DNA of 64,000 nucleotides, from NCBI GenBank assembly GCA_958295695.1, contig OY282363.1, positions 1,113,156 to 1,177,155 on the forward strand. Direction: 5' to 3'. This document shows positions 8,156 to 34,360 of the stretch, in pieces. The number at the start of each line of letters is the position of its first letter. Position 1 is the first letter of the stretch. Origin of the DNA: an uncultured Alphaproteobacteria bacterium. Its GTDB lineage: Bacteria; Pseudomonadota; Alphaproteobacteria; SP197. A model generated the notes under the pieces. It saw nothing but the letters and a program-made list of their open reading frames with translations. It did not search any database and had not been told where the DNA came from. Position numbers and translations under genes: made by a program.

Positions 8156-8156
8156 G

Positions 8157-8858
8157 TCACGCTCCCCGGAAGCCGCGCGCGCGGGCGCGTTCGAGGGCCG
8201 CGGCCCTGACCCCGGGGTCGTGGATCGACCCCTCGGTCAGCCCGTGGAACCCGCTCACCGCGCCCTCGCCCCCGATCTCGACCAGCGCGACCTCGCGGCT
8301 CTCGCCGGGCTCGAAGCGGCGCGCGGCGCCCGCGGGTACGTCGAGGCGCATGCCGAAGGCGGCGGCGCGGTCGAACTCCAGCGCCGCGTTGGCTTCGAAG
8401 AAGTGGTGGTGGCTCCCGACCTGCACGGGCCGGTCGCCCGTGTTGAGGACCGTGAGCGTCGCCCCGCGCCGGCCCGCGTTCAGCGCCACCGCGCCGTCCG
8501 CCGCGACGACCTCGCCCGGGTGGATGTCGGCGCCGTCGACGGGCGTCTCGCCGCCGGGCCGGACGGGATCGTGCACCGTGATCAGCTTGGCGCCGTCGGG
8601 GAACAGGCCCTCGACCTGGACGACGGGCATCAGGCGGCGCACGCCCGGCATCACGTCGTCGGCGCTCAGGATCGTCGCGCCCCAGGCCGCGAGGTCCGCG
8701 ACCGTCCTGCCCTCCCGCGCGCCCTCCAGCAGGGCGTCGACGATCAGGGCCTGCGCCTCGGGATGGTTGAGCTTCAGCCCCTTCTCCTTCCTGCGCCGCG
8801 CCATTTCGGCGGCGGCGAAGATGACGATCCGCTCCATCTCGGTCGGTGTCAGCATCAT
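8157..8858 (-). CDS. ureAB: urease gamma-beta fused subunit (UreA-UreB fusion)
   Basis: 233 aa. The N-terminal ~100 aa match UreA ([35 protein letters not shown]...). The C-terminal ~130 aa match UreB ([40 protein letters not shown]...[10 protein letters not shown]). There is a 2-nt gap to ureC. Confidence 0.9.
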
Positions 8859-8909
8859 GGCCGCGGTCCTCCCGTCCGGGGGCGAGGATAGCGGGCGGGG
8901 GAGGGAAAA

Positions 8910-9968
8910 TCAGTCGGCCATGGCGTCTTTCCCACTCGCGCCGGCGGCGCGCGGGGAGGCCCGAGACGCCGCGGTCTTGTCGACGCCCTTGAGGTCGTGG
9001 GCGAAGACCCGGTTGAAACGTTCGAGCTGGTACTCGCCCGCGACCGTCGGTTCGTAGCGCGGCGTCTCGTCCGCCGGCAGGCCCAGGTCGCGCGGGTCGA
9101 TCACGGTGTGGAAGGCCGGGTCGTAGAACACGGCCATCGAGAACCGCTCCCGGCCCGAGCTGTTGACGACGCGGTGCCGGGTCGAGGCGAAACGGTCGTT
9201 CGACCAGCGCGCCAAGAGGTCGCCGACATTGACCAGCAGGGCGCCCTCGACCGGTGGCGCGGCGAGCCATTCGCCCTCCCGGCTCATCACCTGGAGGCCG
9301 CCGAGGCTGTCCTGGCAGACCAGGGTGAGGCAGCCGAAGTCGGTATGCGCGGCCACGCCGAACTGGTCCTTGCCGGCCTCGGCGGGCTGCGGCGGGTAGT
9401 AGATCAACTGCCCCCGCGCCATGGGCTTCTCGAAGTGCGGCGCCAGCGCGTCGGGTTCGAGGCCGAGCCCGACGCAGACGGCGCGCAGGAGCCGGGACGC
9501 GGTGGCGCACCCTTCCCGGTAGAACCCGTCGTAGATGGCCCGGCGCATCCCGGGCTGGCGCGCCGGCCACCGGTTCGGCCCCCGGAACGGCGTGCCCGCG
9601 ACGACCTCGGGGTCGTCGGGATCCAGCTCCAGCCCCCAACTGAAGAGCTCCTTGAGATCGGTCCTGGCGGCGCCGGTCATGCGCGCCTCGCCGAGCCCCA
9701 TCCAGCCGCGGTTGATGTCGTTCACCGCGATCTCGGCCTTCCTCCGTTCGTCCTGGAGGAAGAAGGCGCGGGAGGCCGCGAAGGCCCGCTCGACGGTCCC
9801 GGGCGCGACGCCGTGGTTCCCGACGTAGTAGAAGCCCAGGCCCCGGCAGGCGGCGACGATGGCGTCGGCCGTCCGTTCCAGCGCGCCGGCCTCGCCGGCC
9901 AGCAGCGGGCCGAGGTCGATCGTCGGGATCTCCTCGGCGGTGACCGGTCTGGCGTGGGCGTAGGGCAT
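8910..9968 (-). CDS. 2-oxoglutarate/Fe(II)-dependent oxygenase, IPNS/DIOX_N family
   Basis: ~352 aa starting MPYAHARPVTAEEIPTIDLG, with the GFYYVGNHGV motif and the HTDFGCLTLV...HRV His/Asp/His core. The ORF track extends it artefactually to 10493. Its stop lies 52 bp from the ureAB start on the same strand. Confidence 0.8.
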   Translation of the reverse strand: MPYAHARPVTAEEIPTIDLGPLLAGEAGALERTADAIVAACRGLGFYYVGNHGVAPGTVERAFAASRAFFLQDERRKAEIAVNDINRGWMGLGEARMTGAARTDLKELFSWGLELDPDDPEVVAGTPFRGPNRWPARQPGMRRAIYDGFYREGCATASRLLRAVCVGLGLEPDALAPHFEKPMARGQLIYYPPQPAEAGKDQFGVAAHTDFGCLTLVCQDSLGGLQVMSREGEWLAAPPVEGALLVNVGDLLARWSNDRFASTRHRVVNSSGRERFSMAVFYDPAFHTVIDPRDLGLPADETPRYEPTVAGEYQLERFNRVFAHDLKGVDKTAASRASPRAAGASGKDAMAD

Positions 9969-10262
9969 CGCGGTCTCGCTCGACGCCGCGTCATCATGGC
10001 CCGGCCGCGCCGGGCGTGTGAAGAGGCTTGTTCGACCGTGAAGCGCGGGACGAACCGCGCCGGCGCCGGTCTCGTCCGCGTCGCGGCGTTCCACGAGCCC
10101 GATGGCGGGACCCGCGCGCGTGAACTCGAGCGAGCCTTCGGCGGCCGCCCAGGGCGAGGGGATTTCGGGGCGGGTGTCGGGAGAACGCTCTTCCCCCCAT
10201 CCCGAACAGGCGCGCGGCGCCGTATCGAGGGAGCGCCCTCCTTCGCCCCGCCGCGAAGTTCC

Positions 10263-10291
10263 GGGGGGTTGACGGGGGGGTAGGGGTAGGA
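10263..10291 (+). other. G-quadruplex-forming motif (G6-N5-G7-N2-G4-N2-G2)
   Basis: ggggggttgacgggggggtaggggtagg, in the intergenic region between the 2OG oxygenase gene and the low-GC island. Confidence 0.3.
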
Positions 10292-10384
10292 GACTGCCGA
10301 AGTCCGGTTGGAAGGATCGCGGAAGCATGACGAGGTTGTTTCCCCGCAACGCCCCCCGCGCGTCGGGCTCGGCGGCCCATGGGC

Positions 10385-18363: not shown

Positions 18364-19503
18364 ATGGCGCATACGTTCGAGCGGGTTCCCCTGATGGCGC
18401 CCGGCCCCGGAACCGAGCGGTTCCTCGCGGCGCACCGCTTCGGAACGCCGGGCGCGCGGCCCAAGCTCTACTTCCACGCCGCGCTCCACGCCGACGAGCT
18501 GCCGGGCGCGCTGGTCCTCAACCGGATGCTGGGCTGGCTGAAGGAGGCCGACGCCGAAGGCGGTCTCTCCGGCGAGGTCGTCGTCGCGCCCTGCGCCAAC
18601 CCGGTCGGACTTTCCAACCGCGTCATGGGCTACCATCTCGGACGCTACGACCTGGACGGCGACGGCAACTTCAACCGCTGGTATCCGGACCTGGGCCGGA
18701 CGGTGGGCGACAGGGTCGGCGACCGGCTGGGCGACGACGAGGCGGAGAACGGCCGCCTGATCCGGGAGGCCTACCGGGAGGCCATCGAGGCGTGGGAGGC
18801 CCACGGCGAGGCCGACACCCTGCGCAAGACGCTGATGGCGCTGTCGGCCGATTGCGACTTCGTGTTCGACCTGCACTGCCACGGCGAGGCGGTCCAGTAC
18901 ATCTACATGCCGGAGAACCACTGGGAGCGCTACGGCGATCTGGCCGCCGAGCTCGGCTGCCGGACGGCGCTGCTGTTTCCGACCGACGCCGGGACCACCT
19001 TCGACACCGCGCCGACGGTCGTCTGGCATCGGCTGCGCGAATGCTTCCCCGACCGGCCGATCGCGGAGCCGCCGTTCACGACCACCCTGGAGCTGCGCGG
19101 CCAGAACGACGTGGGCGACGACATCGCGCTGCGCGACGCGCGCGGCCTGTGGCGCTTCCTGCAGCGCCACGGGATCGTCGCGGGCGATCCCGGCGACCCG
19201 CCGGAGCTGTTGTGCGAGCCGACGCCGGTCTCGGGTTCCGACAATCTCGTGGCGACCCGCGCCGGCGTCCTGTCCTACCGCGTCGATGTGGGCGGCCGGG
19301 TCGAGGCCGGCGACGTGGTGGCCGACATCGTCGATCCGGCGGAGGCGGACTTCGACGCGGCGCGCACGCCGGTGAGGAGCCGGGCGACGGGCGTTCTCTA
19401 CGGCCGGTCGATGAGCCGTCTGGTGCGGCCGGGCCAGTCGTTCGCCGTGGTGTCCGGGCGCGAGGCGCTTCCGGCCGGCGACCCGCCCGCGATCGACTAC
19501 TGA
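18364..19503 (+). CDS. succinylglutamate desuccinylase/aspartoacylase (AstE/AspA) family deacylase, paralog 1
   Basis: 379 aa with the AstE_AspA N-terminal Zn-site pattern FHAALHADELPG and DLHCHGEA. This is the family that contains DoeB (N-acetyl-diaminobutyrate deacetylase). Confidence 0.75.
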   Translation: MAHTFERVPLMAPGPGTERFLAAHRFGTPGARPKLYFHAALHADELPGALVLNRMLGWLKEADAEGGLSGEVVVAPCANPVGLSNRVMGYHLGRYDLDGDGNFNRWYPDLGRTVGDRVGDRLGDDEAENGRLIREAYREAIEAWEAHGEADTLRKTLMALSADCDFVFDLHCHGEAVQYIYMPENHWERYGDLAAELGCRTALLFPTDAGTTFDTAPTVVWHRLRECFPDRPIAEPPFTTTLELRGQNDVGDDIALRDARGLWRFLQRHGIVAGDPGDPPELLCEPTPVSGSDNLVATRAGVLSYRVDVGGRVEAGDVVADIVDPAEADFDAARTPVRSRATGVLYGRSMSRLVRPGQSFAVVSGREALPAGDPPAIDY

Positions 19504-19510
19504 GGCCGCC

Positions 19511-20614
19511 GTGACGCACCGCAAGGAGCATATCGACCTGCCCGTGGCCAGCCTCGGCACCCGGCGCCGCCTCGTCGTGCACCGCTTCGGGACGCCGGGC
19601 GCGCGGCCCAAGGCCTACCTCCACGCCGCGCTGCACGCCCAGGAGCTTCCCGGCGTCGTGGTCCTGGACCGCCTCGTCGCGCGCCTCCGGGAGGCCGACG
19701 CGGCCGGATCGGTCGCGGGCGAGGTCGTGGTCGTCCCCTTCGCCAACCCGATCGGGCTGTCCCAGCAGATCATGATGGAGGCCCAGGGCCGCCACGACCT
19801 CGATACGGGCCGCAACTACAACCGCGGGTTCCCGGATCTTATCGACGAGGTCGCCGACGCGGTCGACGGCCGCCTCGCCGGCGACGGCGCCCGCAACGTC
19901 GCGTTGATCCGCGAGGCCATGGCGTCGGCGCTCGCCGCCCGCCGCGACGCGCGCGAGGCGGACGTCCTGAAGCTCACGCTCCTGCGCCTGTCCTGCGACG
20001 CGGACCTCGTCCTCGACCTCCATTCGGCCTGGGAGGCGCTGCTCCACCTCTTCGTCACCGACCTCAACTGGCCCGGGGCGTCCGACCTCGCTCGCCAGAT
20101 GGGCGCCGAGGCGGTGCTGGTCGACCGCGGCAACCGTATGATGACGTTCAAGTCGGCCCATGCGCTCCTGTGGAAAGAGCTCGCGGCGCGCTTCCCCGAC
20201 CGTCCGGTCCCGCCGGGCAGCCTCGCCGCCGTGGTCGAGCTACGCGGACAGCGCGACGTCGACGACCGCTTCACCAAGCCGGACGCGGACAACCTGTTCC
20301 GCTGGCTGCAACGCCGCGGCGCGGTCGCCGGCGACCCCGGACCCCTGCCGCCGCCAGCGTGCGAGCCGCGCTCGGCGGACGGGCTGCGCCGCCTCTTCGC
20401 GGCGGAAGGCGGCATCGTCATCTACCGCGGCGCGCTCGGCGACCGCGTCCGGGAAGGCCGGGCCTTCGCCCACATCCTCGATCCCGACACGGGCCGCCGC
20501 ACCGCCGTCTCCGCGCCCGCCGACGGCCTGCTCTACGCCCGCCGTAGCCACCGGTTCGCCCGGAAGGGCCAGTATTTCGCCGCCATCGCGGGCGACACGT
20601 TCGTCGAGGATTAG
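19511..20614 (+). CDS. succinylglutamate desuccinylase/aspartoacylase (AstE/AspA) family deacylase, paralog 2
   Basis: 367 aa, colinear with paralog 1 (LHAALHAQELPG, DLHSAWEA). Starts 8 bp after paralog 1, so a tandem pair. Confidence 0.75.
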   Translation: MTHRKEHIDLPVASLGTRRRLVVHRFGTPGARPKAYLHAALHAQELPGVVVLDRLVARLREADAAGSVAGEVVVVPFANPIGLSQQIMMEAQGRHDLDTGRNYNRGFPDLIDEVADAVDGRLAGDGARNVALIREAMASALAARRDAREADVLKLTLLRLSCDADLVLDLHSAWEALLHLFVTDLNWPGASDLARQMGAEAVLVDRGNRMMTFKSAHALLWKELAARFPDRPVPPGSLAAVVELRGQRDVDDRFTKPDADNLFRWLQRRGAVAGDPGPLPPPACEPRSADGLRRLFAAEGGIVIYRGALGDRVREGRAFAHILDPDTGRRTAVSAPADGLLYARRSHRFARKGQYFAAIAGDTFVED

Positions 20615-22207: not shown

Positions 22208-23638
22208 CTACTCCCGGACGCGGGCGGCGTCGCCGAACCGGACGATCCTCTCGATCGTGCCGGCGAGGTCGTCGTCGCCGATGCGGGGATTGATGGTGCA
22301 GAAGCGCAGGCAGGTGCGCCCCTTGAGTTCCGTGGAGGTCACGAAGGCGAAACCGTCGTCGAGCAGGGCCGCGACGATCCCGCGCTGCAAACCGCTCGTT
22401 TCCGCCTCGTCGAGGCCGTCGCGCAGAAGACGGAAGGTCACGACGGCCAGCGTGGGCTCCGTGACGATCTCGAAGCGGCCGCTCGCGCGCATCATCGCCG
22501 CGGCGCGTTCCGCGGTGGCGATGCCGCGCCGGACGGCCCGCCGGAAGGCCGCCGCGCCGAACACCTTGAGCGAGAGCCACAGCTTGAAGGCGCGGAGCCC
22601 GCGCGAGAGCTGGAGGCCGCGCTCGGAGAAGTTCACCTCGCCGTCGCCTTCGGCGACATCCTGGAGATATTCGGGGCTGGCCGCGAAGGCATGGTTCAGC
22701 AGGCCCGGCTCGCGCACGAAGCAGATGCCGGCCTCGTAGGGCTGGAACAGCCACTTGTGGGGGTCGATCACCACGGAATCGCCGCGCTCCATGCCGGCAA
22801 GCAGCGCGCGGCCGTCCTCGACGAGGGCGGCGGCGGCGCCATAGGCGCCGTCGATATGGACCCACAGTCCGAACTCGTCCGCCAGATCGGCGATTCCGTG
22901 GAGGTCGTCGACCGCGCCGGTGTTGGTTGTTCCGGCGTTCGCGACGATGCAGAACGGCCTGAGGCCCGCCTCGCGGTCGCGCCCGACCGCCGCGCGCAGC
23001 CGGTCGAGGTCGATACGGTAGTCGTCGCCCGTGGCGACCGTGCGAAGCTGGTTCGCGCGGAAGCCCAGGATGCGCAGGGCGCGCGCCACGCAGCTGTGGG
23101 TCTGGTCCGCGCAGTAGGCCACGGCGCCGGTCATGTCGTCGCCCAGCTTGTGGTCCCGGGCGACGGCGAGCCCGATCATGTTGGCGACCGAGCCGCCGCT
23201 GGTGAAGACGCCGTCGGCGTGGCCCTCGAGGCCCGCGAGCTCCTTCACCCACTCGAGCGTCGTGAGCTCGCATTCGACCGGCCCCGGCGTCTCGCGCCAC
23301 ATGCTGGCCGCGGCGTTGTAGCCCGACGCGAGCGCGTCGGCGACCGCCGCGACATAGTTGGACGGTCCCGGCACGAAGGCCAGGAAGCGGGGATGCGCGA
23401 TCCGCCCCATCGCGCCGAAGACATGCCGGTCGGCGAAGGCGAGCGCCTCCCTCCAGTCCCCGGCGTCCTCGGGCAGCGGCTCGCGCAGGGCGCCGCGCAA
23501 GGTCGCGAGATCGGCGTCGACGGCCGCGGGCGTCCCGGTCATGGCCGACCAGTGCTCGACCAGCCTGTCGACCGCATGGTAGCCCAGCGCCCGCATTTCC
23601 TCGGGCGAGAGCTCGAGCCGCCCCGGGTCCCTGGTCAT
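22208..23638 (-). CDS. group II pyridoxal-dependent decarboxylase (DABA/glutamate/aromatic-amino-acid/CSAD family)
   Basis: 476 aa. PLP-Lys motif SVVIDPHKWLFQPYEAG and GGSVANMIGLAVAR are typical of Pyridoxal_deC. Confidence 0.8.
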   Translation of the reverse strand: MTRDPGRLELSPEEMRALGYHAVDRLVEHWSAMTGTPAAVDADLATLRGALREPLPEDAGDWREALAFADRHVFGAMGRIAHPRFLAFVPGPSNYVAAVADALASGYNAAASMWRETPGPVECELTTLEWVKELAGLEGHADGVFTSGGSVANMIGLAVARDHKLGDDMTGAVAYCADQTHSCVARALRILGFRANQLRTVATGDDYRIDLDRLRAAVGRDREAGLRPFCIVANAGTTNTGAVDDLHGIADLADEFGLWVHIDGAYGAAAALVEDGRALLAGMERGDSVVIDPHKWLFQPYEAGICFVREPGLLNHAFAASPEYLQDVAEGDGEVNFSERGLQLSRGLRAFKLWLSLKVFGAAAFRRAVRRGIATAERAAAMMRASGRFEIVTEPTLAVVTFRLLRDGLDEAETSGLQRGIVAALLDDGFAFVTSTELKGRTCLRFCTINPRIGDDDLAGTIERIVRFGDAARVRE

Positions 23639-24876: not shown

Positions 24877-25241
24877 CCGCGACGATCGCCTTTCATCTGG
24901 CGGCGGCCCTGTCGGCGCTCGCGCTCGGCGCGGCCAATCTGGCGTTCGCCAAGGGCACGCCGCGCCATCGCCTCGTGGGCTGGATGTGGCTCGCGGCGAT
25001 GGCGTGCGTGACGCTGCCGTCGTTCGCGATCCGCGAGGTCGGCCAGGGGAGCTTCAGCTGGATCCACGGCCTCTCCGTCTGGACCCTCGTCAGCATGGCG
25101 GTCGCGGTCGCAGCCATCCGGCGCAACAGGGTCCGGCTGCATGCCGGGTTCATGGTCGGAACCATGGCGGGCGTCGTCGTCGCCGGCCTGTTCGCGCTCG
25201 CGCCCGGGCGGGAGATCAGCCGGATCCTGGGCTACGGCTGA
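24873..25241 (+). CDS. small integral membrane protein (DUF2306-like, 3-4 TM)
   Basis: GTG start overlapping the CMD stop (GTGA). ~122 aa, highly hydrophobic. Confidence 0.4.
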   Translation: MTATIAFHLAAALSALALGAANLAFAKGTPRHRLVGWMWLAAMACVTLPSFAIREVGQGSFSWIHGLSVWTLVSMAVAVAAIRRNRVRLHAGFMVGTMAGVVVAGLFALAPGREISRILGYG

Positions 25242-26048
25242 GCAGGCCGGCCGGCGATGCGGGCTCCGTCTCGCGCGGGTTTCCCGTCGACCAGGATGGC
25301 GTCGACCTTCCCGGGGTAGAAGCAGAGATAGCCGGCGATCCGGCGCGCCTCGTCGAGCGGTTCGGGATAGAACCAGACCGCGTTCTCGACGGTCGCGCCA
25401 CCGGCCCGCAGATGGTGGTGGCGCGCCCGGCCCTTGTAGGGACAGCCGGTGACGCGGTCGGACGGGAGCAGGGCGGCGGCCTTCACGTCCTCGCGCGGGA
25501 TGTAGTAGCGCGGCGGGAGGCCGGTCTCGAACAGGAAACGGGCGCGGGCCGTGCGGGCGACGGTCTCGCCGCCGACGATCACCTCGACCGGCCGGCCGCT
25601 CTCCAGGATATCGACGCGCACGAACGGGTCGCGGGCGTGGACGAAGACCTCCTCGTCCTCCTCGTACCAGCGGTCCATCCGGTCCCAGGCGAAGCCGAGC
25701 CAGCCGGCGAGGGCGGCGAACTCGTCGTAGGGCGTCTCGTAGCTCCAGACGGCGTTCTCCTCCGCCCGCCCGTCCGCGGCCAGCGTGTAGTAGCTGGCGT
25801 GGCCCTTGAACGGGCACCGGGTGCGGCGGTCCGTTCGCGTCATGAGGTCCATGTCGGCGTCGTCGCGCGGGATGTAGTAGAGCGCGATGTGGCCGGTCTC
25901 GCAGACCACCGCCGCGCGCGGTGTCGAACACGGCGCGTCCCCCGAAGACGGCGCGCACGCGCTTGGCGCATGGCGCGATGTCGACCCGGTAGTCCGGGCG
26001 GGCGGCGTATCCCGGCGCGCCGTTCCGTCGCGCTTCGGCGGTCGCCAT
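25232..26048 (-). pseudogene. tandem double DUF427 protein, disrupted by an apparent 1-nt frameshift near 25935 (or sequencing error)
   Basis: Frame B begins MATAEARRNG...VRAVFGGRAVFDTAR. Frame A continues AAVVCETGHIALYYIPRDD...CPFKGHASYYTL and a second copy ...YYIPREDV...CPYKGRARHHHL. Deleting one G in gcgcgcggcggtggtc restores a continuous two-domain ORF. Confidence 0.55.
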
Positions 26049-26294
26049 GGCTCCTCCTCCCCGTCGGTGCGGCGGCCATTATGCCCGGAGCGGGCCGCGG
26101 GCGACACGATCCGGGCCTAACCGGCTTTGCCGGAATCGCTCCGGGACCGCGATTGCGGCCCCGCCGGCTTGCCGGCGCCCGCTCAAGGCGCGGCCCACGG
26201 GGCCGCTTGCCGCGGGCGACGAGCAAGCCACGGCGTTTCCGTCTTCGACGGAAACGCTGTAGGTTCCGGCGGCTCGGGCGCGACGGGGAGAGAC

Positions 26295-27302
26295 ATGAGC
26301 GACGACGACATCGACCGGGGCGTGCCCGAGGCGCGCAAGCTGGCTTGGGGCGCGGTCTACAAGCCGCGCTATTCCGGCGTGGCGACCTTCATGCGCCAGG
26401 AGTTGAGGGAAGATCCGGACGCCTGGGACGGCGTCGAGGTCGGCCTGATCGGCGCGCCCTTCGACGGCGGCGTCACCAACCGCCCGGGCGCCCGCCACGG
26501 ACCGCGCGCCCTGCGCGACCAGTCGACGCTGATGGGGCGCGTCAACCACCAGACCGGAGTCAGGCCCTACGACTGGGCGGTCTCCGCCGACCTCGGCGAC
26601 GTCCCGATCGAAGGCGTCTACGAGCTCGACCGCGCGATCGACGACATCGAGGCGTTCTACGCCAAGGTCGTGGCGGCGGGCGTCGTACCGCTCACGGCCG
26701 GCGGCGACCATTCGATCACGCTGCCCATCATGCGCGCGATCTCGAAGCACCGGGGCGGGCCGGTCGGCATGGTTCATTTCGACGCCCACTGCGACACGGG
26801 CCCGGAGCTCTTCGGCCACAAGCACCACCACGGCGGGCCCTTCCGCTGCGCCGTGGAGGACGGCGCGCTCGATCCCCGGCGCACGATCCAGATCGGCATC
26901 CGCGGGCCCGCCGAGGCGCTGTGGGACTTCAGCTACGACTCGGGCATGACCGTGATCCACATCGAGGAGCTCTACGCCATGGGGCTCGACGCGGCGGTCG
27001 CCAGGGCGCGCGATGTCGTCGGCGCCGGGCCAACCTATGTCAGCTTCGATGTCGACGGCATGGATCCGGTCTATGCGCCCGGCACCGGCACGCCCGAGGT
27101 GGGCGGCTTCACCGCCTTCGAGGCCCAGAAGATGCTGCGCGGCCTGATGGGGCTCGACATCGTCGGCGGCGACGTGGTCGAGGTCTCCCCGCCCTTCGAC
27201 ACGGCCAACATCACCGCGCTCAACGGCGTCCAGATGATGTGGGAGATGCTCTGCCTGATGGCCGACAGGATCGGCCGGGAGAAAGGACGGATCGAGACCT
27301 GA
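26295..27302 (+). CDS. agmatinase/arginase-family ureohydrolase (agmatinase, guanidinobutyrase or guanidinopropionase-like)
   Basis: 335 aa with Mn-binding motifs GGDHSIT, DAHCDT, SFDVDGMDP. The product is predicted to be urea plus an amine. Confidence 0.8.
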   Translation: MSDDDIDRGVPEARKLAWGAVYKPRYSGVATFMRQELREDPDAWDGVEVGLIGAPFDGGVTNRPGARHGPRALRDQSTLMGRVNHQTGVRPYDWAVSADLGDVPIEGVYELDRAIDDIEAFYAKVVAAGVVPLTAGGDHSITLPIMRAISKHRGGPVGMVHFDAHCDTGPELFGHKHHHGGPFRCAVEDGALDPRRTIQIGIRGPAEALWDFSYDSGMTVIHIEELYAMGLDAAVARARDVVGAGPTYVSFDVDGMDPVYAPGTGTPEVGGFTAFEAQKMLRGLMGLDIVGGDVVEVSPPFDTANITALNGVQMMWEMLCLMADRIGREKGRIET

Positions 27303-27385
27303 AGCCGGTCCGTCGTCCCCGGCGGATCGATCGCTCCTCGACTATCGATCCCCGGCGCCGTCATCGGAAGCCGGGAGCGCGGCGA

Positions 27386-28237
27386 TCAACCCTCTTCCGG
27401 ACCGATGATCGCGCAGCGTTGCTCGCCGAGGCCGTCGATCCCGAGGCGGACCTCGTCGCCGGCCCCGAGGAACGTTCTGGGAGTGCGGCCGAGGCCCACG
27501 CCGGCGGGTGTGCCGGTGCAGATGAGGTCGCCGGGCTCCAGGGTCATGAACCGGCTGATGAAATGGATCAGGTGGGCCACGCCGAAGATCATGTCGGCGG
27601 TGGCGCCGTCCTGCATGCGCCGGCCGTTGACATCGAGCCACAGGCGGAGGTCCTGCGGGTCCGGCACGTCGTCGGCGGTGACGAGCCAGGGTCCCAGCGG
27701 GCAGTAGGTGTCGCCCGATTTGCCCAGGATCCACTGGCCCGTGCCCTTGGCCTGGAACTTGCGCTCGGACACGTCGTTGGCGACGCAATAGCCGGCGACG
27801 TGGTCGAGCGCGTCGGCCTCGTCGACATACTTCGCCCGCTTGCCGATCGCGACGGCGAGCTCGACCTCCCAGTCCGTGTGGCGGCTGCCGCGCAGCAGGA
27901 CGATGGGGTCGTTGGGACCCGAAAGCGAGGTGCCGGGCTTGAAGAAGGCGATCGGTTCCTCGGGCGGCTCGCGCCCGGCCTCCCGGGCGTGGTCGATGTA
28001 GTTCAGACCGATGCAGACGATCTTCCCGACGCCGCCGACCGGCGCGCCGAGGCGCGCCTCCTCCTTCACGGCCGGGAGGCTGCCGGGCCGGATGGAGCGG
28101 ATGCGGTCGAGCGCGTCCTCCCGCAACGCCGGGCCGTGGATGTCCCGGACGCGGCCCTCCAAGGAGCGCAGCACGCCGTCGGGATCGATCAGGCCGGGCC
28201 GTTCGGCGCCGGCCGGGCCGTAGCGGACGAGTTTCAC
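27386..28237 (-). CDS. fumarylacetoacetate hydrolase (FAH) family protein
   Basis: 283 aa with a GTG start after GGAGGA. The FAH fold pattern is present (...KIVCIGLNYIDHAREAG...TPAGVG). The track ORF is overextended. Confidence 0.75.
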   Translation of the reverse strand: MKLVRYGPAGAERPGLIDPDGVLRSLEGRVRDIHGPALREDALDRIRSIRPGSLPAVKEEARLGAPVGGVGKIVCIGLNYIDHAREAGREPPEEPIAFFKPGTSLSGPNDPIVLLRGSRHTDWEVELAVAIGKRAKYVDEADALDHVAGYCVANDVSERKFQAKGTGQWILGKSGDTYCPLGPWLVTADDVPDPQDLRLWLDVNGRRMQDGATADMIFGVAHLIHFISRFMTLEPGDLICTGTPAGVGLGRTPRTFLGAGDEVRLGIDGLGEQRCAIIGPEEG

Positions 28238-28260: not shown

Positions 28261-29022
28261 TCAGGCCGTCAGGCCGCCGTCGACATTGACGGTCTGGCCC
28301 GTGATGTAGTCGGCGCCCGCCGACAGGAACAGGATGGCCTCGCCGTAGTCGGCCGGCGTGCCGATGCGGCCCAGCGGGACGACGCCCGGCGCGTCCCTTT
28401 CCATGCCCGGGAAACGGCACATCCAGGCCGACTCGACGATGCCGGGCGCGATGGCGTTGACCCGCGTCCGGGGCGCGAGCGCCCGCGCCCATTCCTTGGT
28501 CAGGTTCACGAGGCCGGCTTTCGCCGCGCAGTAGACCGAGCTCGATCCGCCCCCGCCGTGGGCCGAGATCGAGGCCGTGTTGACGATCGCGCCGCCCGAG
28601 TCCCGCAACGCCCCGGCCGCCGCCTTGGTGCAACGGTACGGGCCGATCAGGTTGACGTTGAGCAGCAGGTTCCAGAACGCCTCGTCCTGGCGGTCGAAGT
28701 CGTCGGGCGGGATGGGCCGCCGCGTGCCGGGCGTGCCGGCGTTGTTGACGAGGTAGTCGAGGCCGCCGAGGTCGGCGATGGCCCGCGCCACCATGCGCGG
28801 GCAGTCCTCCGCGTCGCCGACATCGCCGGGCGCGGCGACGACACGATGGCCCGAGACGCCGAACTCCTCGACGACGGCGTCCAGGGTCCCGGACCCCGGC
28901 AGGTCGTTGACCGCCACGCTCGCGCCGCAACGCAGATAGGCCTTGACGGCGCCCAAGCCGATGCCCGAGGCGCCGCCCGTGACCAGCGCCCGCTTACCCT
29001 CGAGGTCGTAGGTCGCCAGCAT
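28261..29022 (-). CDS. SDR-family oxidoreductase
   Basis: 253 aa with TGGASGIG and a YxxxK-type catalytic dyad (SVYCAAK), classical SDR. Confidence 0.85.
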   Translation of the reverse strand: MLATYDLEGKRALVTGGASGIGLGAVKAYLRCGASVAVNDLPGSGTLDAVVEEFGVSGHRVVAAPGDVGDAEDCPRMVARAIADLGGLDYLVNNAGTPGTRRPIPPDDFDRQDEAFWNLLLNVNLIGPYRCTKAAAGALRDSGGAIVNTASISAHGGGGSSSVYCAAKAGLVNLTKEWARALAPRTRVNAIAPGIVESAWMCRFPGMERDAPGVVPLGRIGTPADYGEAILFLSAGADYITGQTVNVDGGLTA

Positions 29023-29130
29023 CGCCGTCTCCCGCCGGTTGTTGATCGCGTCATAGCGCCTCGCCGGCGCGCCGGGAAGCCGCCGTCGTCCGCCTGTCGC
29101 GCGTCCGTCGAGGACGGACCGGCTTCAGCG

Positions 29131-29230
29131 GGGAACTCTATCGAAAAGTCACATTGACACAACATCTTGTGTTCATTTTATCTCGTCACATCAACATGAT
29201 GTAGAAATGTGATCGTTGGATATAATCCCC
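29131..29230 (+). repeat. direct repeat DR1 (~100 bp, 38-bp perfect core) bounding a ~3-kb inserted segment; contains a TTGACA box and palindromes
   Basis: tatcgaaaagtcacattgacacaacatcttgtgttcat is identical to 32179-32216. The next ~60 bp are about 80% identical. It carries TTGACA, ACACAAcatcTTGTGT and CATCAacaTGATG. Confidence 0.7.
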
Positions 29231-30090
29231 TATCAATTGCGGGCAAGTGGAACTTCCGGGATTGGAGCCTGGACTTTTCATTCTCGGCAAGCCTCGATGG
29301 GATCGAGATCGAGGCAGAGGCAGGACCGCTCGAGTTTGGGCTCAAGGTAACGGAGAATAATATTTCTGGCAATGTCTCTACAGGAAAGGATAGCCTGAGT
29401 GTTGAATACGGCGACGACGGGGAGGTTGACGTTGAGTTGGGTCTTGGACCCGAAACTGTTACAGCTAAAAGTGTATTTGGTGAAACTACCTATCAAGCGG
29501 AACTTGATTACGGTCTGGGTAGTGTCACCGTTTTTGACAGTCCAAAATCCGATGACGGTCAGGAGTCGCCGGGAAGTGAGGTTGGCGACGACCGGTCGGG
29601 TGATCCGAAAGGCGATCCCGACGCGGGCGCGGACCATCCGGGCGGTCTGGCGGCGGACGACACGGACCTCGAGGCGTTCGCGGCGCTGCACGACGGCAAC
29701 GACGACGGGGTGTTCGACGCGAGGGACGTGGACTGGTCGAAGGCCGGGGTGTGGCGCGACGCGGACGGCGAGGCGGACGCGGGCGAGTTCCACACGCTGT
29801 CGTCGCTGGGCATAACCTTGATCGGCCTCACGTCGGACGGGGTTGCGGAGGACGTGTCGGGCAACCGTATCGCGGGCCGTTCGAGCTACACGCTAAGCGA
29901 CGGGACGACGCGCGAGCTGGCGGGCGCGGCGGGCGTGGCGCTGCTGGGCGGCGCGGGCGCGTCGAACGTCGAGGCGGCCATCGGCGGCGGCGGCGGGGGC
30001 CTCGCGGGGTGTGGACGTTCCCGGCCGGCGGGGATAGGCTGGCGTTCATGGACGCCAATCTCGCTGGCTTCGTCGCTCTCGCGGCCCTGA
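29209..30090 (+). CDS. hypothetical acidic Asp/Gly-rich protein with an EF-hand-like Ca-binding loop; possibly a gene fragment
   Basis: The first ~350 bp have atypically low GC. Motif HDGNDDGVFDARDVDW resembles a DxNxDG calcium loop. The ORF starts inside DR1. No signal peptide is evident. Confidence 0.35.
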   Translation: MIVGYNPLSIAGKWNFRDWSLDFSFSASLDGIEIEAEAGPLEFGLKVTENNISGNVSTGKDSLSVEYGDDGEVDVELGLGPETVTAKSVFGETTYQAELDYGLGSVTVFDSPKSDDGQESPGSEVGDDRSGDPKGDPDAGADHPGGLAADDTDLEAFAALHDGNDDGVFDARDVDWSKAGVWRDADGEADAGEFHTLSSLGITLIGLTSDGVAEDVSGNRIAGRSSYTLSDGTTRELAGAAGVALLGGAGASNVEAAIGGGGGGLAGCGRSRPAGIGWRSWTPISLASSLSRP

Positions 30091-30359
30091 TCCTCGGCCT
30101 GTTCGCCTGGCTGCGCCAGGACATCCGCGCCTTGCGCGGCGAGATGCACGGGCTGCGCGATGAGGTGAACGGCCGGATCGACGCCTTGCGCGACGAGATG
30201 AGCGGCCGGATCGACGCCTTGCGCGACGGGATGGGGGAGTTACGCGAACGGGTGGCGCGCATCGAGGGTCTTCTGGAGGCTGTGTTCATGCGCCGCGACC
30301 TGACGCCCCTGCCCGATCCCCCGGCCCCCGAGCCTCCGGGCAAGTCCGAAGCCGCCTGA
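30048..30359 (+). CDS. small membrane-anchored coiled-coil protein with internal tandem repeat
   Basis: 103 aa with an N-terminal TM (LAGFVALAALILGLFAWL) and a repeated RDEVNGRIDALRDEMSGRIDALRDGM segment; the 33-nt DNA unit is duplicated. Confidence 0.35.
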   Translation: MDANLAGFVALAALILGLFAWLRQDIRALRGEMHGLRDEVNGRIDALRDEMSGRIDALRDGMGELRERVARIEGLLEAVFMRRDLTPLPDPPAPEPPGKSEAA

Positions 30360-30630
30360 AGCCCTCGACGGCCTTGGCGGACCGGATCGTGCCGCGGGAT
30401 CGGTTCACGGTGGCGCGCCGGGTGGAGACCCCGGCGTTCGCCGACGGCGGACGCTGGCGACTGGCGGACTTCGTTATCGGCACGTCTTCGGCGGACACGC
30501 TGGCGTCGGGCGCGGACGTGAAGATCGCGGCCCGACAAGAGCATTGAACGCCTCCATCGCCGCCGGTAGCTTCTCGCGCGATGGGGCGACGACCGTGAGG
30601 ATCTGGATGCCGGGACGTGCGCCAGCCTTT

Positions 30631-32028
30631 ATGAAACCCCGTAACCGTCTCGCCAGCGGCATCGCTCTGCTGGCGCTGGCGCTCGCCGCGTCCCCGTCCG
30701 GGGCGGCCGGTTGCGACGATTGGAACATGATGGCTTTCTTCGCGGAGGCCACGGCGGACGAGGTGCGCGGTTGCTTGGCGGGAGGGAGCGATCCCATGGC
30801 GCACGACGATAAAGGTTGGACGCCGCTCCACAAGGCGGCCGTGCTGTCGAGCGATCCGGCCACGGTTGCCGTGCTGCTGGAAGGAGGGGCAGACCCGAAT
30901 GCGCGAGGCGACAGAGATGCGAGACCGCTTCACGTCGCCGTCCGGTACTCGGCCGATCCCGCCACGATCGCCGCGCTGCTGGGGGCGGGGGCCGATCCGA
31001 ACGCGCGAACCTCGGACCAGAGCGTGACGCCGCTTCACGTCGCTGCTCAGATATCGGCCGATCCCGCCACGATCGCCGCGCTGCTGGAGGCGGGGGCCGA
31101 TCCGAACGCGCGAACCTCGGATCAAGGCGCGACGCCGCTTCATCTCGCGGCGGAGCACTCCGACGACACTGCTGTTTTCGTCGCGCTTCTGGGGGCGGGG
31201 GCCGACCCGAATGCGCGAGCCGACGGAGATGTAGCACCACTTCATCTCGCCGCCCATCACTCGAACAATCCGGCGATGGTTACCGCGCTGTTGAGAAGCG
31301 GCGCCGATCCGAACGCGCGCGCCCGCAGGGATACGACGCCGCTTCACTTCGCCGTGCGGTACTCGGACAATCCCGCCGTGGTCGTCGCGCTTCTGGGGGC
31401 GGGGGCCGATTCGAACGCGTGGGCCGACGGAGGTGTGACGCCGCTTCACCTTGCCGCCCAGTACTCGGCCGATCCCGCCGTGGTCGTCGCGCTGCTGGAG
31501 GCGGGGGCCGATCCGAACGCGCGAGGCGACGGAGGCGTGACGCCGCTTCACCTTGCCGCCCAGCACTCGGACGATCCCACCGTGGTCGTCGCGCTGCTGG
31601 AGGCGGGGGCCGATCCGAACGCGCGAGGCGACGGAGGCGTGACGCCGCTTCACCTTGCCGCCCAGCATTCGAACGGTCCGGCGAAGCTCGTTGTCCTGCT
31701 GAGGGCGGGAGCCGATCCGAACGCTCGGATGTCGGATGAAGGCGCGATGCCGCTTCATCTCGCGGCGCAGTACTCCGACAATCCCGCCATTCTGATTGCG
31801 CTGCTGGAATCGGGAGCCGATCCGAATGCACAGGCGGGTGACAACGGTATCACGCCTCTCATGGTAGCCGCCCGGTTTGCAAGCGACCCCATGGTCCTGA
31901 CGACTTTGCTGGATGTCGGCGCGGACACAGACGTTCGGATCGCCGGAGGCTTGAGCGTTTGCGATCTGTTGGAGCGCAACCCGGCCTTGGAGGTGGCGAA
32001 TGCCGACGGGCGCCTCGGCTGCCGATGA
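30631..32028 (+). CDS. ankyrin-repeat protein (about 12 ANK repeats) with N-terminal signal peptide
   Basis: MKPRNRLASGIALLALALAASPSGAAGC is followed by repeated TPLH(L/V)AA..S.DPA.V.ALL.AGADPNAR units of 33 aa, equivalent to a 99-bp DNA periodicity. Confidence 0.8.
   Translation: MKPRNRLASGIALLALALAASPSGAAGCDDWNMMAFFAEATADEVRGCLAGGSDPMAHDDKGWTPLHKAAVLSSDPATVAVLLEGGADPNARGDRDARPLHVAVRYSADPATIAALLGAGADPNARTSDQSVTPLHVAAQISADPATIAALLEAGADPNARTSDQGATPLHLAAEHSDDTAVFVALLGAGADPNARADGDVAPLHLAAHHSNNPAMVTALLRSGADPNARARRDTTPLHFAVRYSDNPAVVVALLGAGADSNAWADGGVTPLHLAAQYSADPAVVVALLEAGADPNARGDGGVTPLHLAAQHSDDPTVVVALLEAGADPNARGDGGVTPLHLAAQHSNGPAKLVVLLRAGADPNARMSDEGAMPLHLAAQYSDNPAILIALLESGADPNAQAGDNGITPLMVAARFASDPMVLTTLLDVGADTDVRIAGGLSVCDLLERNPALEVANADGRLGCR
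30870..31780 (+). repeat. 99-bp tandem DNA repeats encoding the ankyrin units
   Basis: Units recur with high nucleotide identity, e.g. gccgatccgaacgcgcgaggcgacggaggcgtgacgccgcttcaccttgccgcccagcactcg. Confidence 0.7.
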
Positions 32029-32170
32029 CACGCTGGACAACGATTGTTGGGGTCCGAGTATGCGATCGCGGTCCATCGGACAGGCGGAGGGCGCGCCGTC
32101 GAGTAGTTGGATAAAGACGATCCCGCCACCTCAAGGTACAGCATCGGAGTGGTATGGAAGTCTATCGATA

Positions 32171-32270
32171 GGGAATTTTATCGAAAAGTCACATTGACAC
32201 AACATCTTGTGTTCATCTTGCCTCGTTACATCAATATGATGTGCAAATGTGGCCATTGGATAGAATCGCC
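32171..32270 (+). repeat. direct repeat DR2 (partner of DR1), located in the convergent intergenic region after the ankyrin gene
   Basis: Same core as DR1, offset 3040 bp. It includes a vestigial 5' ORF start (MWPLDRIALQ versus MIVGYNPLSI in DR1). Confidence 0.7.
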
Positions 32271-32272
32271 CT

Positions 32273-34360
32273 TCAACGGCCCTCCGCCCGCCAGGCCGCG
32301 GCGAGGCCGCCGACGAACAAGAGCAGCGCGAGCCAGGGCGGCAGCAGCGCGAGCGTGTCGATTCCCCGCACGAGATAGCGGCCGTGGTCGACGACGCCGA
32401 TCCAGCCGTTCCCGCTGAGGTCGCGGCCGGGCGAGACCCGGCGCACCGTCGGCAGGGGATCGTGGGCGAGCCAGAAGAGGCCGCCGCCGCTCTCGGAGAC
32501 GATCGGCCGCAAGGCCTCGGCGGTCGCCCGGGGATCGCGCCATTCCGGCGGATTGAGCGCGCCCACGCCGACGACGGCCTCGAGCTCGCCGTCGGCGATG
32601 CGGTGGAGGCCGGCCTCGCTCACGGGCGCCTCGGCGGTCGCGCGGCCGGGCAGGCCCGGCTCCAGCAGGACGGTTTCGACGACGCCCGACGGCCGCGCGA
32701 CCGAGACCTCGAAGCCGCGGTCCTCCATGGACTGGCGCACGATCGTGAGCCGGTCGCCGACCGCGACGGCCGACAGCGCGTTCTCCTCGAGGTCGGGCTC
32801 CTTCATGAGCCAGTGGGCCAGCCGGCGCAGGAGCTCCTGGCTCGGTCCTCCGCCCCCGTAGCCGCGCGACCAGAGCCAGAGATGGTCCGACAGGAGCTCG
32901 GCCACGCGGCCCTCGCCCACGCGCTGGACGACGAGGAGCGGACGCTCCTCGGCGCCGTTGAGCAGGACGTCGCCCGTTCCGGCCTCGACGCCGACCAGGC
33001 GGAACCACGGCCCCCAGGGCGGAATCTCGTTGCGGACGCCGGCGAGGTCGGCGGTGATCGGATGGCGCAGGCCCGCGTCCGTCGGGACGACCCGATAGCC
33101 CTGCTCGACGATCTCCCCGGTCGGCAAGGCGGGCATCAGATCGCCCAGCACCGTGGTGTGAAGGCCGAGCTGGGTCGCGAAATCCGGACCCGCCGAGACC
33201 ATCATCGCGCCGCCCTCGAGGACATAGCGCGCGATGTTGTGGAGATAGAGCTCGGGGATCACGCCGCGCTTGCGGTAGCGGTCGAAAACGATGAGGTCGA
33301 AATCCTCGAGCTTGACCTCGAACAATTCGCGCACCGGGAACGAGATCAGAGAGAGCTCCCGGATCGGCGTGCCGTCCTGCTTCTCGGGCGGGCGCAGGAT
33401 CGTGAAGTGGATCAGCTCGACCGAGGGGTCGGCCTTGAGCGTGTTGCGCCAGACCCGTTCGCCGGTGTGGACCTCGCCCGAGATCAGCAGGACCTTGAGG
33501 TTCTCGCGAACGCCGTTGATCGCCAGGACGGCCTCGTTGTTGACCGCGGTGAGCTCGCCCTCGCGCGGCTCGACCTCCAGCCGCACCACCGACGGGCCGG
33601 CGCGGTCCGGCAGGAAACGCATCTCGTAGCGTTCGCCGACGGGAACGCTCCGTGCGATGGGTTCGCCGCCGGGCGGCGTCAGGGTCACGGGCGCGACACC
33701 GCCGCCGGCCGCGCTGTCGTGGACGCGGAAGACCAGGGTCACGGGCTTGTCGACGATGCCGTAGCGGGGCGCCTCGATCAGTTCCAGGCGGCGGTCGGCC
33801 TCGTGGCGGGCGCCGGTCAGCAGAACGTGCACGGGCGCGTCGATCCCGAGGGCCTCGACGGATTCGGGCGCGTCGTGCACGGCGCCGTCGGTCACCATGA
33901 CGATGCCGGAGACCGCATTGCGCGGAACGTCGGCCAGCGCCCGTCGGATGGCGCCGAAGAGGTTGGTGCCCGAACCGGGGAGCGCCCTCTCTCCGGCGGC
34001 CCGCGCCGGGTCGATCTCGGCCACCCGCACCTCCAGATTGGCGAGCCGAGAGAACCGTTCGGCGAGCGCCTCGACCGCCGCGTCGGTCTGTTCCGGCCGG
34101 TTTCCCACGCTCTGGCTGGGCGACCGGTCGGCCAGGACCAGCGCCACGTCGGGCAGCGGCTCCCGGCGTTCCTCGACGACGGAGGGGTTGGCCAGCGCCA
34201 GGACCAGCGCCCCGAGCGTGAAGCAACGCCAGAAGGTTCCGGGCGCCCGGCGCAGGAAGCCGTAGCCGAGAAGAAGAAGAGCCGCGACCGCGAAGGCGAT
34301 GACGAGCCACGGCGGGAGCAGCGGATCGAGGACGAGGTCGGTGACGGCGCCCGCGTTCAT
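32273..34360 (-). CDS. large membrane-anchored protein of the moxR/DUF58 aerotolerance-like operon (N- and C-terminal TM, vWA-like central region)
   Basis: 695 aa. Its start overlaps the upstream gene stop (ATGA). Conserved position as the 4th gene of the moxR-DUF58-DUF4159-X cluster. Confidence 0.6.
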   Translation of the reverse strand: MNAGAVTDLVLDPLLPPWLVIAFAVAALLLLGYGFLRRAPGTFWRCFTLGALVLALANPSVVEERREPLPDVALVLADRSPSQSVGNRPEQTDAAVEALAERFSRLANLEVRVAEIDPARAAGERALPGSGTNLFGAIRRALADVPRNAVSGIVMVTDGAVHDAPESVEALGIDAPVHVLLTGARHEADRRLELIEAPRYGIVDKPVTLVFRVHDSAAGGGVAPVTLTPPGGEPIARSVPVGERYEMRFLPDRAGPSVVRLEVEPREGELTAVNNEAVLAINGVRENLKVLLISGEVHTGERVWRNTLKADPSVELIHFTILRPPEKQDGTPIRELSLISFPVRELFEVKLEDFDLIVFDRYRKRGVIPELYLHNIARYVLEGGAMMVSAGPDFATQLGLHTTVLGDLMPALPTGEIVEQGYRVVPTDAGLRHPITADLAGVRNEIPPWGPWFRLVGVEAGTGDVLLNGAEERPLLVVQRVGEGRVAELLSDHLWLWSRGYGGGGPSQELLRRLAHWLMKEPDLEENALSAVAVGDRLTIVRQSMEDRGFEVSVARPSGVVETVLLEPGLPGRATAEAPVSEAGLHRIADGELEAVVGVGALNPPEWRDPRATAEALRPIVSESGGGLFWLAHDPLPTVRRVSPGRDLSGNGWIGVVDHGRYLVRGIDTLALLPPWLALLLFVGGLAAAWRAEGR

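Follow-up and report, generated by a model that had tools for sequence, protein, structure and literature searches.

The DNA analysed here is a 64,000-nucleotide stretch of contig OY282363.1 from an uncultured Alphaproteobacteria bacterium, referred to in its entirety as the window, and the gene at issue encodes an arginase-family ureohydrolase at positions 26295 to 27302. Our analysis places the predicted protein among the guanidino-acid hydrolases related to GpuA and separates its gene from the urease genes of the same window. A first-pass annotation had recognised the ureohydrolase by three motifs (GGDHSIT, DAHCDT and SFDVDGMDP), and the gene is confirmed as real and intact: the open reading frame runs uninterrupted from an ATG at 26295 to a TGA at 27300-27302, and its translation contains all three motifs at the residues listed below. 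The mechanically called reading frame is longer at its 5' end, opening at a TTG at 26127; we take ATG 26295 as the start because homologues are 333-338 aa long, because Met1 is invariant in their alignment and because tblastx similarity to the related locus L001 begins at window position 26286. The sequence GGGGAGAG lies 4-11 nt 5' of this ATG. GC content at the three codon positions is 0.70/0.47/0.94, as is usual for coding DNA in a window of ~71% GC. The gene and the elements within it are as follows.

26295..27302 (+): coding sequence of the arginase-family ureohydrolase, 335 aa, GpuA-like clade, predicted guanidino-acid amidinohydrolase (Pfam PF00491, phmmer against the PDB, neighbour-joining tree, AlphaFold/Foldseek)
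26529..26546 (+): LMGRVN loop, expected by homology to enter the active site of the neighbouring subunit (alignments; PMC9772407, PMC8125230)
26700..26720 (+), aa 136-142: GGDHSIT motif, His139 a metal ligand (SpeB His126) (alignment; PMC8125230)
26781..26798 (+), aa 163-168: DAHCDT motif, Asp163/His165/Asp167 metal ligands (SpeB Asp149/His151/Asp153) (alignment; PMC8125230)
26799..26834 (+): loop A, GPELFGHKHHHG, with Leu172 at the substrate-recognition position and His179 the catalytic His (SpeB His163) (alignments; PMC10833137, PMC8125230)
27042..27068 (+), aa 250-258: SFDVDGMDP motif, Asp252/Asp254 metal ligands (SpeB Asp230/Asp232) (alignment; PMC8125230)
27171..27200 (+): DVVEVSPPFD, Glu296 the catalytic or guanidinium-binding Glu (SpeB Glu274) (alignment; PMC8125230)

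The protein matches the Pfam Arginase profile (PF00491) far beyond chance, with 297.5 bits (E 1.4e-88) over profile positions 2-280 of 280. An AlphaFold model (predicted local distance difference test score, pLDDT, 81.4; predicted template-modelling score, pTM, 0.84) has as its best Foldseek match GpuA of Pseudomonas aeruginosa (PaGpuA; 3NIQ/3NIP, TM-score 0.82/0.87), followed by 3NIO, 1GQ6 and agmatinases, and all of the top 50 PDB matches listed are ureohydrolases. Residues 168-174 of loop A are modelled with pLDDT <50, consistent with a flexible loop. In Escherichia coli SpeB the two metal ions are held by His126, Asp149, His151, Asp153, Asp230 and Asp232, with His163 as the catalytic and Glu274 as the guanidinium-binding residue (PMC8125230). 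All six ligands of this binuclear centre are present in the window protein (His139, Asp163, His165, Asp167, Asp252 and Asp254) and invariant in the alignment of its homologues; the catalytic His179 and Glu296 are present in the window protein as well. Given this complete set of catalytic residues, the protein should release urea from a guanidino substrate, as the first-pass annotation had expected.

Comparison with characterised enzymes indicates which branch of the superfamily the protein belongs to. In a phmmer search of the PDB it matches PaGpuA (3NIP) with 353.9 bits and 55.1% identity over 292 alignment columns, GbuA of P. aeruginosa (PaGbuA; 3NIO) with 288.4 bits and 45.1%, proclavaminate amidinohydrolase (PAH) with 209.4 bits and 38.4%, the Burkholderia thailandensis agmatinase with 198.7 bits and 36.6%, and E. 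coli SpeB with 190.6 bits and 38.4%, all percent identities being calculated over the trimmed alignment; the guanidine hydrolases of Synechocystis (7ESR, 153.9 bits) and Nitrospira (guanidinase 9FEK, 153.7 bits) and a metformin hydrolase (83.5 bits) follow. A neighbour-joining tree was built from 89 homologues from 84 fetched loci together with five PDB references and 100 bootstraps. In this tree the window protein and PaGpuA are both members of a GpuA-like clade that excludes GbuA (100/100), with GbuA as its sister; the GpuA-like clade plus GbuA is separated from PAH and the SpeB-type proteins (100/100), both of which fall outside it, and the SpeB-type sequences form a clade of their own (100/100). 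Phylogenetic placement, which the first-pass annotation had suggested as a check, shows no tight grouping with housekeeping SpeB, and its proposal of a guanidinopropionate- or guanidinobutyrate-type substrate appears reasonable since the window protein sits with the GpuA and GbuA guanidino-acid hydrolases. The protein is an additional member of a known enzyme family and, judged by sequence, is best described as a GpuA-like guanidino-acid amidinohydrolase; the agmatinase label given by automated pipelines is a misnomer.

We conclude that the gene probably encodes a stand-alone ureohydrolase of the GpuA/GbuA branch that acts on a linear guanidino acid, serves a scavenging role and forms no genetic unit with urease. 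The enzyme would be a cytoplasmic binuclear-metal ureohydrolase, most likely with Mn2+ and presumably hexameric, that would hydrolyse a linear guanidino acid (the 3-guanidinopropionate, 4-guanidinobutyrate or taurocyamine class) at its guanidino group to yield urea and an omega-amino acid; metal, oligomeric state, substrate class and physiological role are all ones that we infer. The gene would be expressed alone, outside any operon, and would contribute to the scavenging of nitrogen (and carbon) in a marine Rhodospirillales-like alphaproteobacterium. The urea would join the cell's general pool and be available to the urease encoded 18 kb away as well as to any other urease, such use being generic metabolism and not a feature of the locus.

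The resemblance to PaGpuA (PA0288; EC 3.5.3.17) is extensive, as this enzyme is the top match in both sequence and fold, has an identical catalytic set, belongs to the same clade and is of similar length. GbuA of P. aeruginosa (PA1421; EC 3.5.3.7) and human AGMAT/GDAH represent the sister branch; loop A of GbuA has the same length as that of the window protein, and its Met161 and the Leu172 of the window protein are both medium-sized hydrophobic residues. Unlike GbuA, to which its similarity is lower than to GpuA (45% vs 55%), the window protein lacks the capping Arg72 and has a different loop sequence. PAH (1GQ6) belongs to the same superfamily branch, basal to GpuA and GbuA, and its loop ends in YHHG where the window protein reads HHHG; at 38% identity it is nonetheless distant, and PAH is encoded in a biosynthetic gene cluster, unlike the window gene and its orthologues.

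Several observations weigh against the assignment to a classical linear guanidino acid and have to be set beside it. The tree is distance-based and holds few characterised references, which were transcribed from PDB alignments, and the NCBIfam agmatinase equivalog TIGR01230 is passed at 174.7 against a cutoff of 174.3, a margin of 0.4 bit. No transporter, LysR regulator or aminotransferase adjoins the gene in the window or in its subclade, so that genomic context lends no support, and no characterised member of the subclade was found in the literature on guanidino-acid and taurocyamine/guanidinoacetate ureohydrolases and on sponge-symbiont agmatinase. Loop A is one residue shorter than that of PaGpuA, though equal in length to that of GbuA. 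Finally, the window protein has Leu172 where PaGpuA has Tyr157 and PaGbuA has Met161, and Gly81 at the position of GbuA Arg72, an Arg in PaGpuA and residue 105 in human AGMAT. Both positions are tied to substrate recognition: PaGpuA Tyr157, PaGbuA Met161 and human arginase Asn130 share one loop-A position with this role (PMC10833137, which cites Lee et al. 2011 for Tyr157), and GbuA Arg72, which corresponds to residue 105 of human AGMAT, extends from the adjacent subunit as far as the acid group of the substrate (PMC9772407). With both recognition positions changed, the substrate could fall outside the classical guanidino acids.

These changes are a property of a whole group of sequences. The window protein belongs to a separate subclade within the GpuA-like clade (100/100 bootstraps), and the replacements at Leu172 and Gly81 appear from the alignments to covary and to define this subclade, which has a conserved loop, PELFGHKHHHGG, where PaGpuA reads NDRYFGDNPYTHGT. 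Among the best 120 database matches, those at ~65% identity or more combine xE(L/I/V)(F/Y)G...HHG with LMG, the next group (63% identity or less) combines DDY(L/M)GSKFHHG with LMR, and the exact sequence DAHCDTGPELFGHKHHHG is found in 63 of the 120. The PaGpuA-type and DDYLGS-type subclades retain Tyr, for which the window-type subclade has Leu, Ile or Val; the PaGpuA-type group also keeps the Arg. LMG is conserved in the window subclade, and other GpuA-like subclades mostly have LMR (some LIR, MMR or FIR). At 65% identity or more the subclade comprises at least 90 cluster representatives, almost all of them from marine and sponge-associated Alpha- and Gammaproteobacteria, mostly represented by metagenome-assembled genomes (MAGs).

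How far the two replacements would alter specificity can be judged in part from characterised relatives. The G105 variant of human AGMAT still hydrolyses guanidinobutyrate and taurocyamine (PMC9772407), so guanidino acids stay compatible with Gly81, and Leu172 is close in size to GbuA Met161; on these two grounds we keep a linear guanidino acid as the likeliest substrate class. The preferred guanidino substrate may nevertheless differ from 3-guanidinopropionate, given the Leu172 and Gly81 replacements. A tentative extension, which we think the less likely outcome, is that the window-type subclade forms a distinct specificity class preferring some substrate other than 3-guanidinopropionate and 4-guanidinobutyrate, for which taurocyamine, or a guanidino metabolite from hosts or algae that is longer or bulkier, may be a candidate. 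If true, guanidino compounds in the ocean would be converted to urea by a route not recognised so far, and a well-populated marine subclade with both recognition positions changed could harbour a new specificity and supply urea to marine or symbiotic bacteria.

A further step would be a substrate beyond the classical linear guanidino acids altogether, such as a derivative of arginine or homoarginine, a guanidino metabolite of larger size (longer or bulkier) from marine sources or a host, or a biosynthetic intermediate like that of PAH. The covarying, subclade-specific replacements of Tyr by Leu and Arg by Gly would fit such a substrate, as would the conserved His/Lys-rich loop GHKHHHGG, reminiscent of the YHHG loop ending in PAH, and the concentration of the subclade in marine and sponge-associated MAGs. 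We consider it unlikely, however, in view of an overall similarity that is clearly highest to GpuA and reaches only 38% with PAH, of the lack of any conserved biosynthetic cluster around subclade members, of the guanidino-acid hydrolysis that Gly at the Arg position still permits in human AGMAT, and of the similar sizes of Leu and GbuA Met161.

That the protein is a true agmatinase, a SpeB that converts agmatine to putrescine and urea in polyamine synthesis or agmatine catabolism, is what its automated name implies: automated pipelines name the gene agmatinase because TIGR01230 is barely passed, and an 85%-identical homologue carries the NCBI name 'agmatinase'. The SpeB-type enzymes of E. coli (7LOL) and B. 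thailandensis (4DZ4) share the fold, the metal ligands and the catalytic His and Glu with the window protein. Against this, the PRK02190 agmatinase model scores 273.9, under its cutoff of 302; identity to the SpeB-type enzymes is only 36.6-38.4%, with 38% to E. coli SpeB against 55% to GpuA, and their clade is separate; and loop A of SpeB is two residues shorter. In SpeB, Trp68 of the neighbouring subunit and Tyr155 form a cation-pi pocket for the amino group of agmatine (PMC8125230); the window protein lacks this pocket, its aligned residues being Arg82 and Gly169. Agmatine is not hydrolysed by human AGMAT, itself a member of the same GbuA-like branch (PMC9772407). No SpeA-type arginine decarboxylase, adjacent or otherwise, is present among the gene calls of the window; the pyridoxal phosphate (PLP)-dependent decarboxylase at 22208-23638 is a group II enzyme (PF00282), diaminobutyrate-decarboxylase-like, and lies 2.7 kb away on the opposite strand without synteny in relatives. 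An agmatinase is therefore improbable, and the annotation of this gene and of many marine homologues, whose label implies polyamine metabolism, should be corrected to the guanidino-acid hydrolase branch.

The immediate surroundings of the gene bear on whether it belongs to a larger genetic unit. On one side of it lies a divergent gene with tandem DUF427 domains, on the other a convergent FAH-family gene and then an SDR gene; since it has no co-directional neighbour it is presumably monocistronic. The features on its 5' side are as follows.

26049..26294 (no strand): divergent intergenic region between the DUF427 and ureohydrolase genes, 246 bp, presumed promoter site (Rfam and promoter scans)
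25232..26048 (-): tandem-DUF427 gene, split over two frames (Pfam PF04248, two stretches, 195 bits)

An Rfam scan of the whole window at gathering thresholds returned no matches, and a permissive scan of 25850-26400 returned only chance-level ones; a promoter and terminator consensus scan of 25850-27450 found no sites, a result that is uninformative for an alphaproteobacterium of 71% GC. No regulator gene was recognised at the DUF427/ureohydrolase intergenic region.

The closest relatives are Rhodospirillales/Rhodospirillaceae MAGs (84-85% identity) and one alphaproteobacterial MAG (79%). The order DUF427, ureohydrolase, FAH is common to the loci L001, L002, L005 and L009, the only ones in which the DUF427 gene adjoins the ureohydrolase. 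The SDR gene is also present in L005 and L009, a gene for a 695-aa protein and BatA/DUF4159 are common to L001, L002 and L005, and the match to L001 and L002 extends on through DUF58, MoxR and DUF1285. On the left side synteny with all four loci ends at about window position 25232, beyond which nothing further is shared; upstream of this break L001 and L002 carry other genes, among them a fatty acid desaturase, MlrC and ChaC. More distant subclade members have differing neighbours (NUDIX/NfeD-Band7, GST/AA-kinase, toxin-antitoxin, FAD-oxidase/MFS/cupin).

The DUF427 gene itself begins at ATG 26048 behind a strong GGAGGAGG Shine-Dalgarno sequence, which opens the frame of residues 1 to ~44, the remainder lying in another frame. 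Comparison with L001 and L005, whose orthologues (260 and 268 aa) are intact, places the change of frame near 25912-25925, which reflects either an assembly indel or a pseudogene. The sole PDB relative, 3DJM, is uncharacterised, and the DUF427 gene is at most a putative partner of the ureohydrolase.

The FAH/SDR pair was considered as a urea-related partner and set aside. The best match of the FAH protein is 2,4-didehydro-3-deoxy-L-rhamnonate hydrolase (387.8 bits), and those of the SDR protein are SDR-family dehydrogenases, with glucose 1-dehydrogenase at the top and L-rhamnose 1-dehydrogenase lower; from these rhamnonate hydrolase and sugar dehydrogenase matches the two look like a sugar-acid pathway pair.

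The surroundings also distinguish the window gene from that of PaGpuA. P. aeruginosa gpuA is reportedly, from work by Nakada and Itoh in 2005, neighboured by gpuR (a LysR-type regulator) and gpuP (a transporter). The window gene lacks both and has DUF427, DUF2306, CMD, FAH and SDR genes around it instead. In the wider GpuA-like clade a class-III aminotransferase is encoded within 7 kb in 22 of the 84 loci and within 600 bp in 12, none of these 12 being in the subclade of the window protein; such neighbours fit an omega-amino-acid product. The class-III aminotransferase at 48876-50036 of the window was rejected as a partner on account of its distance (21 kb) and its low identity (27-31%) to the aminotransferases that adjoin GpuA-like genes elsewhere.

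The first-pass annotation had gone further and suggested that the ureohydrolase, with 'DoeB-like' deacylases and a decarboxylase, would fit the breakdown of a guanidino- or amidino-containing solute whose urea the urease would then hydrolyse. Read as a dedicated catabolic locus, this would take in the AstE/AspA-family proteins, the PLP decarboxylase, an EctC-like protein and the ureohydrolase, with the urea channelled to the nearby orphan urease. The urease structural genes are the following.

8157-8858 (-): ureAB, gamma/beta fusion (PRK13192, 330.7 against a cutoff of 243)
6446-8155 (-): ureC (TIGR01792 urease-alpha equivalog, 752.6 against a cutoff of 680)

Some of what underlies this proposal holds. 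All the genes concerned lie within ~20 kb of one another in the window, the ureohydrolase is 17.4-18.1 kb from ureAB and ureC, close to the ~18 kb originally given, and it should produce urea; UreC keeps the active-site motifs of the Klebsiella aerogenes enzyme, including GSDS, and the urease structural genes look functional. The dedicated locus is nevertheless highly improbable. Its genes are not all on one strand and are interspersed with those for transporters, a thioesterase-DsbA fusion, CMD, DUF2306 and DUF427, and at least 14 genes on both strands separate urease from ureohydrolase. The break in synteny at about 25232 falls between the ureohydrolase block and the cluster. The DoeB label is likewise unjustified, since the DoeB model, with its cutoff of 402.7, gives the two AstE/AspA-family proteins just 31.6 and 24.2 bits.

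Comparative evidence points the same way. Every window protein was compared by tblastn with the 84 related loci (median ~9.9 kb per side, 1.33 Mb of flank in total), and none of these loci has UreC, UreAB, either AstE/AspA protein or the double ectoine-synthase-like protein within the flanks of at most 10 kb, in which a urease 18 kb from a homologue would escape notice. The same flanks yielded no thioesterase-DsbA fusion and no deoxyribosyltransferase-like protein, and a single weak match (28% identity) to the PLP decarboxylase. Reverse tests, which started from the other genes, gave a consistent answer. Homologues of the 2-oxoglutarate (2OG)-dependent oxygenase encoded beside the urease, 75-81% identical over the best segment, occur in seven marine metagenome contigs; ureAB is present in four of these and ureC in three of the four, and none of these oxygenase/urease contigs carries an arginase-family gene. 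Other genes found there with the oxygenase encode an OpuAC binding protein, an alpha/beta-hydrolase and RPE65. The module of two AstE/AspA proteins, a Rieske oxygenase and a double-EctC protein recurs in a JGI contig (that of protein P0131) without arginase or urease, and two further double-EctC contexts also lack both. The synteny break and the two reverse tests argue against a conserved unit with urease: the ureohydrolase and the urease probably do not form one genetic unit, and a pathway reconstruction that joins ureohydrolase, urease and the ectoine-like cluster loses support.

The least plausible alternative, a Ni2+-dependent guanidine or biguanide hydrolase of the GdmH/guanidinase or metformin-hydrolase type, is barely conceivable, for although such enzymes belong to the same superfamily and are matched by the window protein at the scores given above, this similarity is much weaker than that to GpuA and GbuA, the known enzymes are ~375-390 aa long with extra N-terminal segments, and neither HypA/HypB-like Ni-insertion genes among the gene calls of the window nor a guanidine riboswitch in the Rfam scans was found.

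The urease genes have a context of their own. They lie in a module (6446-9968, -) directly downstream of the gene for the 2OG-Fe(II) oxygenase (DIOX_N and 2OG-FeII_Oxy domains, no NCBIfam match), and this association is seen in marine contigs (L090-L092 and L096) at 73-84% identity, beside an OpuA-type ABC transporter. The gene calls scanned over the 64 kb included neither ureDEFG genes nor a urea transporter, and the flanks examined in the marine contigs contained no urease accessory genes. The genes form a conserved accessory-less urease module, in which the oxygenase may, for example, free urea or a ureido fragment from a solute taken up by the cell. Adjoining it, a segment of low GC content (9968-11842; 0.54 against ~0.71) holds a single 301-aa open reading frame (10327-11232, weak TPR match only). 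In the related marine contigs its place is taken by an OpuAC substrate-binding gene, flanked by the ABC ATPase and 2OG oxygenase genes, and the segment may be an insertion of foreign DNA or a replacement.

The module at 15946-20614, which encodes the two AstE/AspA-family proteins (379 and 367 aa), the Rieske oxygenase alpha subunit and the double-EctC cupin fusion, is not a canonical ectoine pathway. Its counterpart in the JGI contig is accompanied by six tandem double-EctC paralogues and an Opp-type transporter. Beside the double-EctC gene of the window, a gene at 14877-15890 (-) encodes an unusual protein in which a FlK-type (fluoroacetyl-CoA-specific-like) hotdog thioesterase domain is fused to a DsbA-like thioredoxin domain.

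To the right of the ureohydrolase, a 3.2-kb segment (29022-32273) is absent from the syntenic L001, and L005 has ~1.5 kb in its place. Within it, an open reading frame at 30544-32028 (+) encodes a protein of 494 aa that contains nine ankyrin repeats. Proteins with such repeats are typical of symbionts living with sponges and other eukaryotes, and many of the MAGs that bear homologues of the ureohydrolase are assemblies from sponge or symbiosis projects.

A Creatinase_N/Peptidase_M24 protein is encoded beside an MFS transporter at 55747-56925 (-) and 54470-55618 (-), and its best NCBIfam match is ectoine hydrolase DoeA, at 177.7 bits, far under the cutoff of 575. The family of this protein includes creatinase, another urea-releasing enzyme, and two of the 84 loci (L019 and L031) encode homologues at 44-46% identity ~2 kb from the GpuA-like gene.

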